Source: a virus (lineage: Duplodnaviria; Caudoviricetes). From it: a stretch of DNA of 25,859 bases. This document shows positions 3,787 through 14,797 of this stretch, in pieces; the stretch's first letter is position 1; every line of letters starts with the position of its first letter. The notes under the pieces were generated by a model. It searched no databases and had not been told where the DNA came from. It saw nothing but the letters and a program-made list of their open reading frames with translations. The position numbers were made by a program, and so were the translations under genes. The stretch is from IMG/VR virus record IMGVR_UViG_3300025168_000582, positions 1 through 25,859 of that record; one strand, given 5' to 3'.

Positions 3787-5378
3787 TGCCGAGTATAGAT
3801 GACGGATATGGTAATAAGAATACGCAGTCACGTGCTAACGAATACAATGGAGGTAGAAATGCTAATGATCAAGGTAATGGTGATGGTAGAGCAGCAGCAG
3901 CAGCGGCACAACAAGAAGCAGCTAGGGTTGCATTAGGTCAACAACAAGAAGCTGCTAGACAACAAGCAGCGGCAGTAGAAGCACAACGTCAACAACGAGT
4001 AGCTCAGGAACGTGCTCAAGCTAACCTAGCTATAAGTCGTGCTCAGGAAATGCAAAAGTATTCTAATAACGTACCTGTAGATGATCGCAGCACTTATGGT
4101 GGTGGTATGTTACAAAGTACAGTAGGTGTTGCTGGCGGCCCTATGTCAAGAGCCGATGCAGCTATCATGGGTCAAAACTTTACGCCTCAGCTACCTAACA
4201 CTGCTGGTGGTTGGATGCAAATGGCGGGTTCTCCCTTCTTACCCTTTATACAGTCTTTTGCAGATCGGACTAGATACGGAATGAGTCCAGCTTCTCAAGC
4301 TATCTTTGATAGCTTAGACCCTACTCAGAAAGCTAACATAGGTTCATTACAAGATCAAGTTAATTATGCACGTAACATTGTAAAACAAAATCAAGCAGCA
4401 CCTAACAGTTACACTGGCCCTCAGAAGCCAAGTAACTTTAGTGACCAACAGTGGAATAGTATGACACAAGGACAGAAGCAGTTTATGAGTCCTGAGGGTG
4501 CTTTTGGAGGTCAGGCTGGCATGGGTAATGCAGGAGGAGGCGGTGGTATGTTACAAAGTACAGTAGGTGTTGTTGGCGGCCCTATGGCAGGAGGAGCAAG
4601 AGACTACCAGCCAACAGGAGGCACATTCAAGCCTATTACCTTTAGATCAGGCACAGGTAACCCAGACCCTTACGCTGGCTTAAGTGACATGGCACAGCAA
4701 GGTCAAGGAATGTTTAACGTAGCAGGTCAGGATGCACTACAAGCTGCTGATCAGTTTAATTATAACTTTGACCCACAGGCAGCAGGACAGCGCTTATTTG
4801 ATGAACGTTCCTCATTACTTGAGCCAGCCTTTGCACAGCAACGTGCTAAGAACTTAGAACAGATGCAAGGCTTGGGTCGTATAGGCCTACAGTTATCTGG
4901 TGAGGGCTTAGGTGCTGGTGAAGACTCAGGCATGATGAATCCTGATATGTTTGGTATGAACGCTGCACAGTCTCAGGCTTTAGCAGGGTTATCCGCACAA
5001 TCTACTCAAGATGCCTTTGGTCAAGAAGTCCAACGTGCGGGTCTTGACTTGAATCAGTTTAACACTAATCAAATGACTGACCAACAGCGTTATGCTAACC
5101 TTATGGGTACTGGTCAAGGTATGCTTACCGCTAGTATGCTTGAACCTCAAGTACGTAATCAGTTAATAGCACAACAGCAACAGCAGCAAGGCTTAGATCA
5201 GAACTACGAGCTAGGTAAATATGGCAATGAAACAGCACGTATTACAGGACAAGCTCAAGCTAACAACTACAACTATCAGCCAGACCCTTGGCTTTCAGGT
5301 CTTACTAGCTTAGGTTCTTCATTCTTAGGCACTACAGGTGGCAGTGGTTGGTTATCAGGCATATTTGGAGGTTCATAA
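3786..5378 (+). CDS. Putative internal virion / DNA ejection (pilot-like) protein
   Basis: Q/A/G-rich and low complexity, with a glycine-rich amphipathic C-terminus. Start moved to 3786 because of the TAATG overlap with the fibre gene. Confidence 0.6.
   Translation: MPSIDDGYGNKNTQSRANEYNGGRNANDQGNGDGRAAAAAAQQEAARVALGQQQEAARQQAAAVEAQRQQRVAQERAQANLAISRAQEMQKYSNNVPVDDRSTYGGGMLQSTVGVAGGPMSRADAAIMGQNFTPQLPNTAGGWMQMAGSPFLPFIQSFADRTRYGMSPASQAIFDSLDPTQKANIGSLQDQVNYARNIVKQNQAAPNSYTGPQKPSNFSDQQWNSMTQGQKQFMSPEGAFGGQAGMGNAGGGGGMLQSTVGVVGGPMAGGARDYQPTGGTFKPITFRSGTGNPDPYAGLSDMAQQGQGMFNVAGQDALQAADQFNYNFDPQAAGQRLFDERSSLLEPAFAQQRAKNLEQMQGLGRIGLQLSGEGLGAGEDSGMMNPDMFGMNAAQSQALAGLSAQSTQDAFGQEVQRAGLDLNQFNTNQMTDQQRYANLMGTGQGMLTASMLEPQVRNQLIAQQQQQQGLDQNYELGKYGNETARITGQAQANNYNYQPDPWLSGLTSLGSSFLGTTGGSGWLSGIFGGS
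4101..4586 (+). repeat. 45-bp in-frame direct repeat (4101-4145 and 4542-4586)
   Basis: ggtggtatgttacaaagtacagtaggtgttg(c/t)tggcggccctatg, 44/45 identical, with a 441-bp period. Confidence 0.95.
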
Positions 5379-5379
5379 C

Positions 5380-6873
5380 ATGGCACAACAAGGTTTATTC
5401 ACACAACTACCCTCAGTCGATGAATTGTTACAACAGCGTAACAAAAGAGCTACTGACCTACAACAGACATTAATGACTAATGCTGCACAGGGCGCACGTG
5501 ACCCTGCTAAAGCACGTGCCGTTAGTTTCTTAGGTTCTGCTTTAGGTCGTGCCTTAGGTGACTCTATGGGCGGTGAAGATAAAATAATGGCTGAACGTAA
5601 AGCTGATATTGAACAACAAACTGAAATGCAGGGTAAGTTTGGTCAATCTTTTACACAAGGAACTCCTGAGAATCAACTTAAATTAGCTAATGAATTAATT
5701 CAAATGGGCTATGTTGAAAAAGGAACAGAATTGTTTGAAGTAGGTCAAGCTGGCTTAAAAGCACAACAGGCTAAAAAAGCTGCCGATTTAGTAAAAGCAG
5801 AGGAACAGAAACTACGGGATAATGTAGCAGCTACCGCAGAGGCACAAGGATTAGCACAGTTAGCAGCTACAGTAAGAAATGGTGGTGACTTAGGAGAAGC
5901 ACAAAAAACTCTTGCTGAATACGAGCAGACACAAATTGTAGCAAGAGGTGGTCGGGCTGGTCGTGTACAGCTTGCACAGCAATATTCAAAAGGTCAGTCA
6001 TTTGTAGATCAAATAAAAGCAGGTAAGTTTGATAAAATGGATGGTGCTGAATTTATTGCAGTATTAAAAGGTAAACAAGCTAATAACAAAGCGTATAAAA
6101 GTAGTGGGGGTATAACTAAAATATACAGTGAGGACGAGCAAGGTAAAGTTTTAGACCCCGCTTCTAAAACATGGGTATACCCCTATGAATTAGGCCTAAG
6201 TGTTGCACCTAAGCTAACACAAGAAGTAATTCCCATGTTAGATACAATAACACGTGAGACTATGGGTGCTTTGTTAGGCGCAGAAGTGCTAAATTATGCC
6301 GACTTAAATCAAAAAGCTAACTCAGCTATAAACGGTATTTTTATTAATGATCAATCCATGGACATTTTTGATAAGGGTATTATATTAGGAAAGTTTGGTG
6401 AAATGCGTTTACAACTTGCTAAAGGATTAGAATCATTTGGAATGTCAAGTGAAAAAGCAATGGAAGTAACCGCTAATACCGAAGCGTATTTAGCGTATCG
6501 TGGTAACGCTGTGGCTAACATAATTCAAGCTTTTGGTGCTGGTACAGGTTTATCTGATCAGGACAGAAAGTACGCAACAGCAATGGCGGGTGGTCAAATT
6601 GAAATGACTGCTTTAGCTGTAAAGAAAATCTTAGAGATTGAGCGTAAGGGTTATGTTAATTTAATTAAAGAAAATAACAAGGTGGTTGATCGTTTAATTG
6701 GTCGTATTAAAGGTACTGATACAGAGAAGAAAGAAATGGCGTTGTCCTATTACCTTGAAGAACCTGCTGAACGTCTAAGCGGAAAAACAGAGAAACAATC
6801 AATAGTTGATAAATGGGTGCAACGTGCAGAACAAAGGCGCAGGCAGCAGACACAGCTAAGAATGGTGAAATAA
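5380..6873 (+). CDS. Putative internal virion / ejection protein
   Basis: Helical, Ala/Gln/Lys-rich, with a C-terminal FGAGTGLSDQDR motif. ATG at 5380 is preceded by GGAGG. Confidence 0.6.
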   Translation: MAQQGLFTQLPSVDELLQQRNKRATDLQQTLMTNAAQGARDPAKARAVSFLGSALGRALGDSMGGEDKIMAERKADIEQQTEMQGKFGQSFTQGTPENQLKLANELIQMGYVEKGTELFEVGQAGLKAQQAKKAADLVKAEEQKLRDNVAATAEAQGLAQLAATVRNGGDLGEAQKTLAEYEQTQIVARGGRAGRVQLAQQYSKGQSFVDQIKAGKFDKMDGAEFIAVLKGKQANNKAYKSSGGITKIYSEDEQGKVLDPASKTWVYPYELGLSVAPKLTQEVIPMLDTITRETMGALLGAEVLNYADLNQKANSAINGIFINDQSMDIFDKGIILGKFGEMRLQLAKGLESFGMSSEKAMEVTANTEAYLAYRGNAVANIIQAFGAGTGLSDQDRKYATAMAGGQIEMTALAVKKILEIERKGYVNLIKENNKVVDRLIGRIKGTDTEKKEMALSYYLEEPAERLSGKTEKQSIVDKWVQRAEQRRRQQTQLRMVK

Positions 6874-8690: not shown

Positions 8691-10667
8691 ATGGACAGTA
8701 GAAGGAACAATAGAATGTACAATACTTTAGATTGGTTAGGGTATAATATAGAAAGTCAAGGCCCAAGTGCTTCTGAGAATGAAGAAATGGGTTCATCTAT
8801 GCAAAACCTTGTACTTGCCCAAGCTGGTAGGATGGCGAGGGATGAAGTAAAAGAAGAGTGGGGAAAACTTAACACTTCCTTAAGCTCTCGTCAAGCCGAT
8901 ATTGACAAAGCTACCTCCGCTTATTCAAGTGGAGATCGTAGCGCACTTGATGTAGGCCTTACTGCTGCTAAAAACACTGTAGGAGGCGTAGGTGACGTAT
9001 TTGGTACAGCAATGTCTATACCCATCCCTGACGTAATAACAGAGCCTATGGGCGCTGCTATGCAAAAGATACCTACGTCAACTCCTGTGGATTCTTACCT
9101 ATCTGAAAAGTTTCCCGATGCTTACAGAATGGCAAGCAATGCTGTTGAAACTGGCTTAGGTCTATTTACAGGTGGTAAAGGAAAACAATTAGTTTCTGGC
9201 CCTACAATAAACCAAGTTGCCCGTAATACTGATACTAAGCTAAAAGGTTTCTATAGTGGTAATCCACTGGCTAAACTTACGGGTGTGGCTCAAGCAGGTG
9301 CTGTTGCAGTAGGTAGGTCAATTAAAGAACTTTTTACACCACAATCTTTAGCAACCTTAAGGCAGACAGGTATATCAGAAGGAATGTTACAACAAAACGT
9401 AAGGCACTTACAGGCTTTAGGTCTAGGTAATAAATTCAATGACTTTGATAAACTAGGCACACAGGTCACTAAATTAAAAGAACAGGCGGCTAACGCCAAA
9501 ACACCTGCTGGAGTTAAATCAGCAAAAGATAAACTAAAAATAGCTTACAATAAAAAGACTGCTTTAGGTAAAGAACTTAAACCGCATTTTAAAAATAAAG
9601 ACAAAATACTTAAGCTTGCTAAAGAAGCGCCTAGTTTTCAAGCAGGTTCCGAAGCTTACCAAGGTTTAATGGACAAACAAACAGGAACGAATAGTCCTTT
9701 AGTTAAAGAATTATTTGGCCCTCAGGTAATGTCCTTTGGAACATTAGGTGGTTCGGGTATGCAAGGTGTGTGGGATTCTGGCGTTACTCGTAATGCTCGT
9801 CCTCCTAGTGCTGCTATAGAAGATGCTTTTCAAAAGCATTTAGTAGAAGCTTGGGGATTAAAGGGAAATACCGATAATGTTCAAATATTAGTTAAGAACC
9901 CTGTTGATCACCACCCTAATATGGGCCATGAGTTAATAACTGATAAGGCAGACGTTAGTCGATTTTTAGGTGTATTGGCTAATGAATTAAAACCTAACCA
10001 TTTATTAGATACTCAGTTAATGGGAGATGTCATGCGTCTAAGAGGCGCCAAAAGTCCTACAAAAAGTGTACGTAAATATGTAAAGTATAATGATATGCTT
10101 GCTGATGGTAAATCTTTATCAAAAACACAACAAGAAAGTTTTGATGTTTTAAACAAACAGATTGATGATCTACCTCCTGCAAAATACGATGCCCAAGAAG
10201 GAGTATGGTATTTCTCAGGTAGTCATAAATCACAAGCAAAAGAACTAGGAGGTATGAACCATTGGGCTGCCTTATCAACTAGACAAAACTCTTATACACT
10301 CGCAGCTTCTGACGCTTCTGATATGTTAGGGGTTAAACCTGTAGGTGGTGCAGACTTACTCACTATTTTTCCTCCTTTGACAGGCTCGTTAGATGATTTA
10401 ATTAAAGACACAAAAAAACCTAAAGGTTATTCAGTTAATGACCCTAACTATGTCAACCCTATATTGAAAGGGTCTGAGGCACTTGAGGCTAAGTATGGTG
10501 TACCTCCTGTTAAACGATTTAATAATGTTAATGCCACAACACAGCAAAGGATGGACGTTATAGAAAGTGTTGCAGGTAAAGTAAAGCCTGAGGAAGCTGA
10601 TTATCGTCAATTAGGAGGTAACTACTCAGGTGCTGGCGCTTTTATAGATAACAAAGAAGACGAGTAA
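8691..10667 (+). CDS. Large hypothetical protein, possibly a virion/ejected protein (start may be 8715)
   Basis: Long open frame continuing the structural operon. AAGGA precedes the ATG at 8715. No domain recognised. Confidence 0.55.
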   Translation: MDSRRNNRMYNTLDWLGYNIESQGPSASENEEMGSSMQNLVLAQAGRMARDEVKEEWGKLNTSLSSRQADIDKATSAYSSGDRSALDVGLTAAKNTVGGVGDVFGTAMSIPIPDVITEPMGAAMQKIPTSTPVDSYLSEKFPDAYRMASNAVETGLGLFTGGKGKQLVSGPTINQVARNTDTKLKGFYSGNPLAKLTGVAQAGAVAVGRSIKELFTPQSLATLRQTGISEGMLQQNVRHLQALGLGNKFNDFDKLGTQVTKLKEQAANAKTPAGVKSAKDKLKIAYNKKTALGKELKPHFKNKDKILKLAKEAPSFQAGSEAYQGLMDKQTGTNSPLVKELFGPQVMSFGTLGGSGMQGVWDSGVTRNARPPSAAIEDAFQKHLVEAWGLKGNTDNVQILVKNPVDHHPNMGHELITDKADVSRFLGVLANELKPNHLLDTQLMGDVMRLRGAKSPTKSVRKYVKYNDMLADGKSLSKTQQESFDVLNKQIDDLPPAKYDAQEGVWYFSGSHKSQAKELGGMNHWAALSTRQNSYTLAASDASDMLGVKPVGGADLLTIFPPLTGSLDDLIKDTKKPKGYSVNDPNYVNPILKGSEALEAKYGVPPVKRFNNVNATTQQRMDVIESVAGKVKPEEADYRQLGGNYSGAGAFIDNKEDE

Positions 10668-10696
10668 AACCTAAGCACAAAAAAGCCCTACCTAAG
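10663..10696 (+). repeat. 34-bp direct repeat, copy 1 (left half of the terminator only)
   Basis: agtaaaacctaagcacaaaaaagccctacctaag, 33/34 identical to 11802-11835. Confidence 0.95.
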
Positions 10697-10705
10697 GAAA
10701 AAAGT

Positions 10706-11779
10706 ATGTCAGCCCGTAATCATAAAAGTTGGTTGAAAACACCACCAGTTGAATATATAAGTAGTGAATGTTACAATAGTCAAAAGATTTATGAAGCAGA
10801 AATAAAAGAAATTTTTGCTAAAGTCTGGATACCTATTATACATAAAAGTGAAATAAAAGAAATAGGTGATTATAGAACATCACAGATTGCATTTCGTAAT
10901 ATACTCATAGTAAATCATGGGGATAGAATTAGATCTTATATTAATTCAGGCATTACAGGTGTGTCGGGTAACACAAACCCTTACGAATTATTAATAAACG
11001 GAACGGAAGAACTATATTGTGAAACAAAACATGGTGGCATGGTATGGGTAACACTAGACCCTAATCCAAGTATGAGTGTCGATGAATGGACTTGTGGTGC
11101 ATTTGATTGTATTACAGATGCTATTGATACAGAAGAACTAGAAGTGTTTCATTACCATAAAGCAATTATTCCAACAAACTATAAACTATGGCACGATACT
11201 AATAGTGAATTTTATCACGACTTCATGCACTACTTTAATAGAGTAACAGGCTTTAATGATGAATATTTTGCTAGAAAGAATATTGCATTTGATAATGGTC
11301 ATGTTAATGTAAGTAGTTTCACAGTAAACTATGGTGAATATGAAGGGGCTGGAGATAGAAAAGCATTAAGTTTTCCAAATTTGCCGCCAAATCAATGGTA
11401 TATGGTAGACTTATTTCCGGGCTTTAACTTTAACCTACGTGGTAGTGCTTATCGTTCAGATAGTGTAACACCACTAGGCCCAAATAAGGTACTGATTGAA
11501 TTTCGTGGTTATGGTTTATTAAAAGACACACCAGAAGAACGTAAGCAACGTATTGACCATCATAACACAATATGGGGGCCATTTGGTCGTAACTTACATG
11601 AAGACTTGTTAGGAGTTACTGGACAAGGAGTAGCAATGGCAGTCGGCACTGAGAAAAGAAATATACTACATGGGCGCCATGAAAATGGAACTATCCATGA
11701 TGAAGTAGGTATGAGGCATTATTATTCTGAGTGGGGTAAATATTTAGGTGTAGACCCAATGAATCCATTGGCTGCATAA
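10706..11779 (+). CDS. msmA: Ring-hydroxylating oxygenase alpha subunit, MsmA-like (methanesulfonate monooxygenase), lacking the Rieske cluster motif
   Basis: Catalytic-domain motifs TNYKLWHDTNSEFYHDFMH, PLGPNKVLIEFRG, HNTIWGPFGRNLHEDLLGV and TIHDEVGMRH match my recollection of MsmA. No CxH...CxxH is present. Confidence 0.8.
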   Translation: MSARNHKSWLKTPPVEYISSECYNSQKIYEAEIKEIFAKVWIPIIHKSEIKEIGDYRTSQIAFRNILIVNHGDRIRSYINSGITGVSGNTNPYELLINGTEELYCETKHGGMVWVTLDPNPSMSVDEWTCGAFDCITDAIDTEELEVFHYHKAIIPTNYKLWHDTNSEFYHDFMHYFNRVTGFNDEYFARKNIAFDNGHVNVSSFTVNYGEYEGAGDRKALSFPNLPPNQWYMVDLFPGFNFNLRGSAYRSDSVTPLGPNKVLIEFRGYGLLKDTPEERKQRIDHHNTIWGPFGRNLHEDLLGVTGQGVAMAVGTEKRNILHGRHENGTIHDEVGMRHYYSEWGKYLGVDPMNPLAA

Positions 11780-11801
11780 AGTTTTTTTTAAAAATTCTTT
11801 A

Positions 11802-11835
11802 AGTAAAACTTAAGCACAAAAAAGCCCTACCTAAG
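11802..11835 (+). repeat. 34-bp direct repeat, copy 2
   Basis: agtaaaacttaagcacaaaaaagccctacctaag, which runs into the complete terminator. Confidence 0.95.
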
Positions 11836-11856
11836 TCTCCTTAAGTAGGGCTTTTT
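11818..11856. terminator. Bidirectional intrinsic terminator between the convergent arms
   Basis: aaaaaagccctac-ctaagtctccttaa-gtagggcttttt: a GC-rich stem with an A-tract before and a T-tract after. Confidence 0.92.
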
Positions 11857-11868
11857 AATGCCTAAGAT

Positions 11869-12090
11869 TTAATGAATGTCAAACCCTGTGTTAGTCTTCC
11901 ATGCAAAGTAATCCTCAGGTCTCATAATCTCCTTAAAGATAGTCTCAATAGCTACGATTAAACGTAACACTTCTGGTGCATCATCCTTATCTCCAAACTC
12001 CATCTCTTCCTTAAGATCACTGTGGAACTGCCCTAAGCAAATAACTGTAATCTGCTCTATGTCTACAAGGTCATTTAACTGTACACTCAT
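11869..12090 (-). CDS. Acidic hypothetical protein (73 aa)
   Basis: The MSVQLNDL start lies immediately after the nrdB stop, and the ORF ends just before the terminator. Confidence 0.7.
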   Translation of the reverse strand: MSVQLNDLVDIEQITVICLGQFHSDLKEEMEFGDKDDAPEVLRLIVAIETIFKEIMRPEDYFAWKTNTGFDIH

Positions 12091-12091
12091 G

Positions 12092-13045
12092 TTACCACCC
12101 CCAAGATTCACCAGACATTCCATCTGCGCTATAGTCCGTCACACGTCCCTCAAAGAAGTTCTTAAAGCTATCACCATTAAGTACCCAATCAAGCCACGGA
12201 AGAGGATTCTCCTGTACGTCCCAATTAGGCTTAAGACCTAGGTTAACTAATCGTCTGTCGGCAATGTATCTGATGTACTCTTTGACTTCACTAGCCGTAA
12301 GACCTTCCACACCTCCCAGTTCAAACGCCAGATCAATAACCTTGTCCTCAAGCTCGACAGCAGTCCTGTACATTTCATAGATAGATAGTTTAAACTTATC
12401 ATCAACAACCTCTGGATTCTCATTAATAAAAGTACGAAACAATTCTGTCATACCTGCGACATGAATAGTCTCGTCCCGTATACTCCACTCTACAATCTCA
12501 CACATACCCTTAAGCTTACCAAAGCGTTGGAAGTTCAAGAGCATTACAAAGGCTGAGAATAGACTCATGCCCTCATTACAAACAGTCTGCGCTAATGCTT
12601 TAGCTAATCCTGCTTTAGTGTCTGGGTCAAAGGTCTGCATAAACTCAAGCTTCTCAGCCATAGCGTCATACTCAAGGAACGCTGTGTACTCAGCCTCAGG
12701 GAAGCCTAGGGTATCGTTAAGCAAGGCGTAGGAGCGCATATGGATAGTCTCTCGCTGTGCAAACGATAACATCATCATACGTGCTTCATTGTTCTTGATG
12801 CGAGGTAGGAACACATCTACGTAAGAACCACCTACGATTACATCAGACTGTGTAAATAGCCTGAGTATCTGAGTGATAAAGTTCTTCTCTTCATTGCTAA
12901 TCTTACCTGACTTCCATTGTGTCACATCTTCCTGTAGGTCACACTCCCACTCACCCCAGTGTAACTTATCATGCTCAATAGATTGCTCCACAAAGCTTGA
13001 GTAGTTAAAGGGCTTATACGCTGGTGATACTGTTAGTAAACTCAT
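12092..13045 (-). CDS. nrdB: Ribonucleotide reductase class Ia beta subunit
   Basis: FTQSD, ETIHMRSY (radical Tyr), EGMSLF, RDETIH and C-terminal NFFEGRVTDYS. All di-iron ligands are present. Confidence 0.96.
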   Translation of the reverse strand: MSLLTVSPAYKPFNYSSFVEQSIEHDKLHWGEWECDLQEDVTQWKSGKISNEEKNFITQILRLFTQSDVIVGGSYVDVFLPRIKNNEARMMMLSFAQRETIHMRSYALLNDTLGFPEAEYTAFLEYDAMAEKLEFMQTFDPDTKAGLAKALAQTVCNEGMSLFSAFVMLLNFQRFGKLKGMCEIVEWSIRDETIHVAGMTELFRTFINENPEVVDDKFKLSIYEMYRTAVELEDKVIDLAFELGGVEGLTASEVKEYIRYIADRRLVNLGLKPNWDVQENPLPWLDWVLNGDSFKNFFEGRVTDYSADGMSGESWGW

Positions 13046-13048
13046 TTC

Positions 13049-14797
13049 TTATCCTTGGCAACTTAAACATTCATCATCGTCTTGTGCAAAGTCTGTTAGG
13101 GCTACACGTGTAGGCTTGAAGCTCACTGTGTCAGCCTTAGAACCTGCGCTAGTCCTTAGGTAATACAAACCCTTAAGCTTCTTATTGAAAGCTCTCAGGT
13201 GTACTTCATTCACATAGGCCTTATCAGTACCAGCAGGGAAGAACAGGTTAACACTCTGTCCTTGGCATATATAAGGCTGTCTACCTGCTGCATGATCAAT
13301 AACCCATCGTTGGTCAAGCTCAAAGGCAGTCTTATAGATTTCCTTATCCCATTCATCCATCCACTCTAAGTGCTGTACGCTGCCCTCGTTAAGTACAATA
13401 GACTTCCATTGTTCCGCTACCCACTCAGGGTCTTTGTTATGCGCCTTAAGCACTTTATCTAAATACTTGTTCTGTACTAGGTGAGCACCTACTCTAGTCC
13501 TGTGCGTAAAGGCATTAGACTTAAGAGGCTCTATACTAGCGGAGCAACCAGCAATAATACTACTGTTAGCATTAGGCGCTATAGCCAGTAAGTGACTGTT
13601 ACGCATTCCTGCCACGTCAGGGCAAGCCCCACGTTCCTCAGCTAAGTACACTGAGGCTGCTCTAGCCTGTGCTTTAATATGTGTAAACATATCAGTATTG
13701 ACTGTAGTAGCCATAGGAGACTCCCACGGGACGCCTAAGCGTTGTAAGGCGCTATGGAACCCCATTGCCCCTAGTCCTAGTGAACGCTCCTGTGTGGCAC
13801 TGTAGACAGCCTTACGTAGCTCCTTAGGTGCATGGAAGCAAAAGAAACTAATTACATTGTCAAGCATAGTAATTAAGTCAGCTACCATAGTGGTGTCTTT
13901 CCACTCTTGATAATACTCTAAGTTAACACTTGACAAACAACAAACTGCTGTACGTTCATCTGACGTAGGTAAGTGTATCTCGTTACACAGGTTAGACCCA
14001 TGTATCTCAAGCCCCTTCTCTTTCATAGATGGTGGCAAGTGTCGATTAGCTTCATCAATAAAGTTTAAGTAAGGCTCACCCGTCCTAAAGCGTGTCTCAA
14101 TTAAACGCTCCCATAGCTCACGTGCTGGTAGTAAGTCACGTACTGTCTTGTCATTAGGGTCTACTAAAGGCCAAGGGTCACCAGCCACTACAGCGTCCAT
14201 GAATCGGTCAGTAATGTTCACTGCATTGTGTAGGTTAAAAGCCTTACGATTAGGGTCACCTCCTGTCGGTACACGAATGTTAATAAACTCAATGATGTCT
14301 GGGTGACTAATGTCCATGTAGGCTGCATAAGAACCCTTACGAGTCTTACCTTGCCTGTAGGCTGTCATGTCACTGTCTACTGTTTTTAAGAAAGGTATTG
14401 GTGAAGGAGCCACATCACTAACGCTACGAATGTCGCTCCAATGGCCGCCCACTCCACCACCTTTAACACTAAGCCATCGTAGTTCTGTCGAGTGTCCGAT
14501 AAGACCATCAAGGTTATCAGGCACATAAGAGAGGAAACAGCTAATAGGTAATCCATTTATCTTTTCCCCCTCCTTAGGGGCATTGCTTAATATAGGGGAA
14601 CTGAACATAAACCAGCCCTTGCTGGCGTAGTCATAGATGCGTTGTGCTAGTTCATAGTCATGCTTACTGAATGCCGTAGCAGCACGTGCATAGGCATCTT
14701 GTGGGTCTTCGCCCTCACGACAGTAGTAGTCTTTAAGGAGCGTATAGGCCTGTTCCGACAGTAACTTGTTACGCTTATAATCAATTGCAATGCTCAT
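13049..14797 (-). CDS. nrdA: Ribonucleotide reductase class Ia alpha subunit, compact and without an ATP cone
   Basis: PISCF, SNLCNEI, AVCCLSSVN, APNANSSII, LYYLR and C-terminal CLSC. Confidence 0.96.
   Translation of the reverse strand: MSIAIDYKRNKLLSEQAYTLLKDYYCREGEDPQDAYARAATAFSKHDYELAQRIYDYASKGWFMFSSPILSNAPKEGEKINGLPISCFLSYVPDNLDGLIGHSTELRWLSVKGGGVGGHWSDIRSVSDVAPSPIPFLKTVDSDMTAYRQGKTRKGSYAAYMDISHPDIIEFINIRVPTGGDPNRKAFNLHNAVNITDRFMDAVVAGDPWPLVDPNDKTVRDLLPARELWERLIETRFRTGEPYLNFIDEANRHLPPSMKEKGLEIHGSNLCNEIHLPTSDERTAVCCLSSVNLEYYQEWKDTTMVADLITMLDNVISFFCFHAPKELRKAVYSATQERSLGLGAMGFHSALQRLGVPWESPMATTVNTDMFTHIKAQARAASVYLAEERGACPDVAGMRNSHLLAIAPNANSSIIAGCSASIEPLKSNAFTHRTRVGAHLVQNKYLDKVLKAHNKDPEWVAEQWKSIVLNEGSVQHLEWMDEWDKEIYKTAFELDQRWVIDHAAGRQPYICQGQSVNLFFPAGTDKAYVNEVHLRAFNKKLKGLYYLRTSAGSKADTVSFKPTRVALTDFAQDDDECLSCQG

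Follow-up and report, generated by a model that had tools for sequence, protein, structure and literature searches.

A phage-encoded MsmA catalytic subunit without its Rieske segment and a predicted split methanesulfonate monooxygenase in SAR116-type bacteria

The msmA locus and its product

The stretch analysed here (the window) is the whole 25,859-nucleotide IMG/VR record IMGVR_UViG_3300025168_000582, from a podovirus-like marine phage with a T7-like polymerase whose best matches are the pelagiphages HTVC103P and HTVC104P (49%). On its plus strand an intact frame of 357 aa (positions 10706 to 11779) encodes a Rieske-less MsmA alpha subunit, the catalytic, iron-site half of the usual protein. 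E168 and the iron ligands H171 and H175, roles assigned by alignment to solved oxygenases, lie at 11207 to 11230, and D300, the putative carboxylate ligand, at 11603 to 11605. Within the first of these segments, E168 would be the bridge to the Rieske histidine of the neighbouring subunit. E333 (11702 to 11704), an invariant acid which may be equivalent to NDO Glu410, is possibly a second contact to the neighbour's cluster. The chain ends in Leu-Ala-Ala (11768 to 11776), a possible ClpXP degron. In Pfam the ORF was matched by PF00848 (E 6e-6) and by no Rieske domain; PHROGs contained no family for it and NCBIfam matches were far under the cut-off. An AlphaFold2 model (pLDDT 93) was found by Foldseek to resemble Rieske oxygenase alpha subunits (E 3e-20, TM about 0.7), and the protein is therefore predicted to have the catalytic-domain fold of a Rieske non-heme iron oxygenase alpha subunit. 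Judged by its residues, it contains the 2-His-1-carboxylate iron motif and the bridging acid.

In place of the cluster-binding subdomain a 23-aa linker was found (residues 81-103; 10946 to 11014, plus strand), which is free of Cys and His. Between the conserved W41 motif and the GG strand this protein has 69 aa and all 57 canonical MsmA compared have 115 aa, so that about 46 aa are missing, including the CxH-x26-CxxH cluster motif. The version of this motif with the 26-residue spacer is given as the family signature of MsmA in a passage of PMC4433239, and since this defining motif is absent the phage protein is no canonical MsmA. Its catalytic domain nevertheless appears orthologous to MsmA, as indicated by trees and by the retention of 131 of the 143 canonical-conserved catalytic positions in Rieske-less copies. 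The deletion is no error of one contig: among the best 120 of 1,162 homologous clusters the E..H...H motif was present in 118, the Asp motif in 120 and the Rieske motif in none. Moreover, no beta subunit, ferredoxin or reductase gene was found among the window ORFs (24 scanned against PHROGs, the others read by eye), and the msmABCD operon context is missing around the phage gene in a window that spans the whole, about 71% complete, record. An earlier note, made from the sequence alone, had described this combination of intact frame, retained ligands, lost Rieske segment and missing partner genes, and it was reproduced here in every part.

The gene is a 1,139-bp insert bounded by 34-nt direct repeats that lie 1,139 bp apart. 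The left repeat (10663 to 10696, plus strand) is a duplicated left arm of a terminator and forms no hairpin alone, while the right repeat (11802 to 11835, plus strand; 97% identical) is the left arm of an intact hairpin. This strong hairpin (11799 to 11876; z -6.0 and -8.8), which a simple terminator scan did not flag, is likely a two-way terminator. It stands between the convergent virion (plus) and replication (minus) modules, with msmA as the last virion-strand gene just before it. A Shine-Dalgarno-like AAGGA (10694-10698) overlaps the end of the left repeat, 7 nt before the ATG. Eight IMG/VR contigs were found to carry the repeat; one of them shows full identity to the window along its length, and msmA is absent from the other seven. 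In three contigs without the gene (L387, L389 and L393) the upstream virion gene is 97% and NrdB 99% identical, and a single repeat copy is present. The msmA gene of this phage is thus a recent accessory insert, and it is dispensable in this phage group, since seven of the eight related contigs with the same terminator do without it. Its nearest relatives among the matches listed (81-84% identity) belong to large T4-like phages, which indicates that the gene moves between unrelated phage groups. The GC content of msmA is 35% (GC3 0.22) against 39% (GC3 0.25-0.30) in the neighbouring virion genes, a weak sign of foreign origin.

From the position of msmA only, late co-transcription with the virion genes is inferred. 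A promoter scan gave 8 candidates where 6.8 are expected by chance. Parts of msmA are present on contigs from two RNA runs of one sample; these were set aside as proof of msmA transcription because the rest of the phage is covered at similar depth. Directly across the terminator lie genes for the alpha and beta subunits of a class Ia ribonucleotide reductase (window 12092-14797), enzymes that are themselves iron-dependent; in L387, L389 and L393 about 245 extra bases separate the two. In L388, L390, L391 and L392 NrdB is 94-99% identical and the last virion genes upstream of the terminator are unrelated or highly diverged, which suggests that the terminator marks a recombination boundary. Another podovirus, L364 (4262-7101), has a V3-type copy at the same replication/virion junction, on the replication strand after ribonucleotide reductase.

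The Rieske-less form in phages and in SAR116-type bacteria

Homologues of the phage protein form 1,162 clusters, and at least 598 stretches with Rieske-less msmA were confirmed in IMG/VR (598 of 600 candidates). The product of phage HMO-2011, phage1322_61 (ADW08429.1), is 69% identical over the whole length, in line with the earlier note, which names an msmA in this SAR116 phage. Both proteins share the same deletion and an Ala-Ala end, and the HMO-2011 gene likewise stands alone in its phage genome. Unlike the HMO-2011 gene, the present copy groups in a sub-clade whose other members are from large T4-like phages, and it is a repeat-bounded insert in a podovirus with a T7-like polymerase. The system had been proposed as undescribed, which does not hold: according to a passage of Henriques and De Marco 2015 (PMC4433239), the HMO-2011 protein, many GOS and virome sequences and one of two IMCC1322 copies are without the motif. 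Rieske-less phage msmA is therefore a gene type already published. Viral msmA is stated to be under purifying selection in a passage of Kieft et al. (bioRxiv 2021.01.05.425418), and its role is termed speculative in part of PMC4928673. In the literature searched, neither activity nor iron binding is on record for any Rieske-less MsmA, host or phage.

The dN/dS ratio of the catalytic domain was 0.056 (70 independent pairs from 164 distinct phage genes). The same pairs gave 0.23 for the N-terminal part and 0.53 for the linker, which is under relaxed selection. Between this gene and its five nearest relatives it was about 0.09-0.12. The view of the protein as a streamlined subunit under purifying selection was thus upheld. 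The contrary case, of a deletion unique to this contig with dN/dS near 1, is at odds with the number of clusters and with a ratio of about 0.1. Moreover, E168, H171, H175, D300 and E333 are kept in all 141 phage copies, and the first three also in 19/19 host Rieske-less and 56/56 canonical copies. The counterpart of E168 bridges the neighbour's cluster to the iron, according to passages of PMC5033481 and PMC5407579. Compared with MsmABCD of the Methylosulfonomonas methylovora M2 type, the phage catalytic domain is 77% identical to the canonical majority residue, with ligands conserved; unlike that system, the phage protein has no CxH-x26-CxxH motif and no msmBCD beside its gene. Eight catalytic-domain positions differ consistently from canonical MsmA, and these are common to phage and host Rieske-less copies, between which no fixed catalytic-domain difference was found.

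No msmB, msmC, msmD or partner gene was found within 5-6 kb in 199 viral loci (80+80+39, some overlapping). In alignment-based scans of IMG/VR for the partner and MsmB, invariant motifs confirmed none of 42 candidates for an MsmA Rieske domain and none of 18 for MsmB. Phages carry only the Rieske-less half. On the T4-like phage contig L003 two different Rieske-less msmA lie side by side (4028-5134 and 5868-6482). In several large phages (L004, L005, L349, L354 and L374) the gene often adjoins Fe-S assembly genes (IscU/NifU, IscA-like), and in L349 a gene for an SdhB-like Fe-S protein is also near.

Further analysis was directed at bacterial loci, of which 80 of 162 genome matches were examined. 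The Rieske-less form was found in 22 of the 80, 17 times in chromosomal msm neighbourhoods and five times on binned phage contigs; the latter bacterial-bin matches (L083, L084, L090, L097 and L103) were scored as phage by gene content and left out of the cellular count. The typical order of the SAR116-type cluster is transporter genes, a gene of about 800 aa, msmB, msmC, a 280-aa ORF, Rieske-less msmA, LysR, TauE, PanB, FTHFS and FolD, the last few names being a reading of sequences and Pfam. Host Rieske-less copies therefore sit among genes for MSA transport, sulfite export and C1 metabolism. The earlier note had asked whether the deletion defines a viral clade under purifying selection: the selection is there, but the form is not phage-only, being a normal chromosomal gene in these clusters.

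The ~800-aa gene encodes an MsmA paralog in which the Rieske domain is intact and of the long-spacer type and the catalytic domain is eroded; fused to it is a ferredoxin-reductase domain, a GR-type FAD reductase (PF07992 and PF14759). In these fusion partners the CxH-x26-CxxH motif was present in 38/38 and the iron motifs in 0/38. Partners match the canonical majority residue at 83% in the cluster subdomain and 30% in the catalytic domain, against 6-7% and 77-79% in the Rieske-less copies. All 14 partners compared have lost or altered the counterpart of E168. Erosion is graded: in the partners of G106, G107 and G109 the iron helix can still be traced, with Lys in place of the bridging Glu, and other partners have lost the helix. 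From these sequences, bacteria with the Rieske-less form appear to possess a complementary partner in which the cluster is kept and the iron ligands are lost. No msmD was seen in the SAR116-type split clusters, and split-system hosts have no catalytic copy other than the Rieske-less form. Of 192 genomes in the SAR116 order, 17 gave a match; 14 have both halves (one only as contig-end pieces), one has an intact msmABCD (G182) and two have one half (in one of them a contig ends inside the partner gene). The Alphaproteobacteria, the order of G593 and the class of G594 were each sampled at 401 genomes, and within these samples no cellular Rieske-less copy was found beyond the centre genomes; a metagenome scan for the fusion partner (3 of 64 parts) was swamped by generic reductases. 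For a split methanesulfonate monooxygenase in SAR116 no published description was found in the literature searched, which covers few subscription journals and included passages of PMC12262181, PMC8547437 and PMC5068391.

Some variation was seen around these clusters. The 280-aa ORF (L087:6953-7792), which has no Pfam or PHROG match, is conserved beside msm genes in split and many canonical clusters, and it could be an assembly factor like NdmE. In G106 three ORFs of 962, 249 and 312 aa lie between msmC and the 280-aa ORF (L175:9912-14502); by eye they are a molybdopterin oxidoreductase with Fe-S and membrane subunits, and L176 and L177 have a gap of similar size. A dmsABC set near msmA is reported in a passage of PMC8547437. 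The partner of G003 is in two ORFs of 330 and 465 aa (L182:15189-17575), either a real split or an assembly error. The G002 bin contains two copies of each half (C16 and C45), which may be bin contamination.

The design of the SAR116 cluster, a Rieske-less oxygenase with a Rieske-reductase fusion, is shared with the N7-demethylase NdmCDE of caffeine breakdown in Pseudomonas putida CBB5, in which the Rieske-less iron oxygenase NdmC is completed by the Rieske domain of NdmD fused to a reductase, as described in a passage of PMC4408171. NdmCDE differs in its oxygenase subfamily and in that NdmD is an FMN protein, whereas the SAR116 partner is a whole dead alpha subunit with a GR-type FAD reductase. 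The SAR116 cluster, for its part, includes a beta subunit, and no GST-like NdmE was seen in it. We know of no phage half of NdmCDE. A second parallel is the Micromonas chlorophyllide a oxygenase, whose paralogs MpCAO1 and MpCAO2 divide the iron motif and the Rieske cluster between them and are both needed, as stated in part of bioRxiv 2025.02.10.637544; it differs from the SAR116 split in being eukaryotic, without a reductase fusion or a viral copy. Among phages, those with pmoC and amoC keep only the catalytic-metal subunit of a host C1/N oxygenase and express it late (a passage of PMC7674155). In those phages the subunit is normal, whereas in phage MsmA the subunit itself is cut down.

Repeated loss of the Rieske segment

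Trees were built from 298 columns without the deleted region and 65 rows, which were clustered subsets of the fetched sequences. A profile-free search revealed a second Rieske-less type (P0122). It is found on IMG/VR contigs that bear phage hallmark genes, and signatures of this type, a 5-aa insertion among them, recur in the intact MsmA of L280. This lineage is nested among intact proteins (support 99/100), and a single origin of the Rieske loss was rejected (p-AU 7e-6 under LG+G4 and 5e-6 under PMSF). The sequences thus indicate that the Rieske segment was lost at least twice, with phage lineages included each time. All bacterial relatives of the second phage lineage were intact MsmA, and no split partner for it was found in viral loci and sampled genomes. 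P0316 is an MsmA of 390 aa that has lost the Rieske ligands although the segment is deleted only in part; it may be an intermediate or a third independent loss.

In the first lineage, the Rieske-less copies of hosts group in a single shallow clade (95/97) nested within the phage copies. Monophyly of all its phage copies without the hosts was rejected (p 0.004 and 0.001). This is due to V3, a basal phage group that branches outside and may represent a Rieske loss of its own. For the main phage group alone monophyly was not rejected (p 0.16 and 0.06; 0.066 in another run). A placement of the Rieske-less lineage beside the SAR116 resident gene, as expected from in-place duplication, was not firmly rejected (p 0.04-0.21). 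Backbone bootstrap was moderate (51-71), the constrained searches were short and the PMSF guide tree was the free tree. With the N-terminal segment alone, part of the second lineage joins the first, and with catalytic segments alone the host copies are not kept together. The partner, in turn, is the resident gene, since it stands in the position of msmA and, in its Rieske domain, groups as sister to the intact SAR116 msmA of G182.

Taken from these trees, a phage-first origin of the host Rieske-less half is favoured but not proven, as the same picture is expected from a later replacement of the host allele by a phage allele or from unsampled hosts. In a fuller and tentative version of events, perhaps not the most probable one, the Rieske-less subunit would have arisen repeatedly in phages, where it served as a spare iron-site module for intact host MsmA; a phage copy would then have been domesticated by one SAR116 lineage, after which the resident msmA lost its iron site and was fused to a reductase. 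The phage gene is known and the host split is unpublished within the literature searched, which leaves the phage-first origin as the new, testable part.

Proposed electron supply and role of the phage subunit

Based on the complementary residues of the two halves, phage MsmA is probably a catalytic spare half of methanesulfonate monooxygenase that assembles with a host subunit supplying the cluster. Electrons would pass from NADH to the reductase FAD, then (by way of the MsmC ferredoxin) to the host Rieske cluster, and through E168 to the Fe of the phage subunit, where methanesulfonate would be split into formaldehyde and sulfite. The earlier note had suggested that electrons are drawn from host subunits; this fits, and to it can be added the complementary host partner and the invariance of the bridging acid across the phage copies. 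A Rieske-less chain would add no cluster, and the productive pairs in a mixed ring could therefore not exceed the number of host clusters. What the phage would contribute, probably at a late stage of infection, is fresh iron sites, a spare part for which each chain needs one iron rather than three, and the C-terminal Ala-Ala would make the subunit short-lived. Phage psbA and pmoC, too, have been proposed as spare parts.

Several points count against assembly of such a spare half with a host subunit. The pelagiphage polymerase matches are at only 49%, and this phage may infect a bacterium without the split system. The gene is dispensable, as seen from the related contigs without it. A three-fold ring cannot alternate two subunit types. 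Lastly, in the hosts of the second lineage a Rieske-less chain could lower activity.

It is unlikely, although not negligibly so, that the phage chain acts instead as a dominant-negative poison, entering host alpha rings so that the next subunit is without a cluster and the Ala-Ala tail delivers the complex to ClpXP, by which iron, NADH or sulfur would become available to the phage. An Ala-Ala end was found in 96 of 141 phage copies and in none of 75 bacterial copies, all of which end in Ala-Glu. Moreover, Ala-Ala or Val-Ala ends are also present in the independent second phage lineage, whose bacterial relatives have only intact MsmA. Terminal Ala-Ala is the key ClpXP signal in E. coli, necessary but not sufficient, according to a passage of PMC10862746, and the tail may limit the life of the protein or route mixed complexes to proteolysis. 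However, a poison subunit need not keep invariant iron ligands and a bridging acid in a domain with such a low dN/dS, and it is this same form that serves as the sole catalytic copy in split-system hosts. Ala-Ala alone is also insufficient as a degron, and about a third of phage copies are without it.

Direct reduction by a soluble Rieske ferredoxin (MsmC or another), docking at the site of the missing domain with no alpha partner, seems more doubtful still. Loss of the cluster subdomain could open a docking face, and several large phages with msmA also have Fe-S assembly genes nearby. Under this explanation, however, the highly conserved alpha-type Rieske domain that hosts keep on a catalytically dead paralog would be redundant. 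There is only a slight chance that the protein has a different substrate or chemistry, be it another sulfonate or a reductant-independent dioxygenase reaction. The eight positions unlike canonical MsmA would suit such a change, but they are common to host copies that sit among MSA transport, sulfite export and C1 genes. Since the same form is chromosomal in SAR116-type clusters, with no fixed catalytic difference, both a new substrate and a purely dominant-negative role are less likely. A decaying passenger gene, as a recent, dispensable insert might be, is highly improbable given an intact frame, a dN/dS of about 0.1 and over 1,100 clusters, and is refuted at the family level by dN/dS.

Assembly of the phage catalytic half with a cluster-bearing host subunit would offer a mechanism, open to testing, for a marine viral gene that is abundant and annotated msmA but has been set aside for missing its defining motif, and it comes with the prediction of a split methanesulfonate monooxygenase in SAR116. 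Surveys counting only long-spacer msmA would score the catalytically dead partner as the enzyme, and the gene that is actually catalytic would be overlooked. Should the phage-first order be correct, an abundant ocean bacterium would rely, for its main methanesulfonate enzyme, on a catalytic subunit that was born in phages and is still traded by them, a rare case of a viral auxiliary gene reshaping the architecture of a host enzyme.
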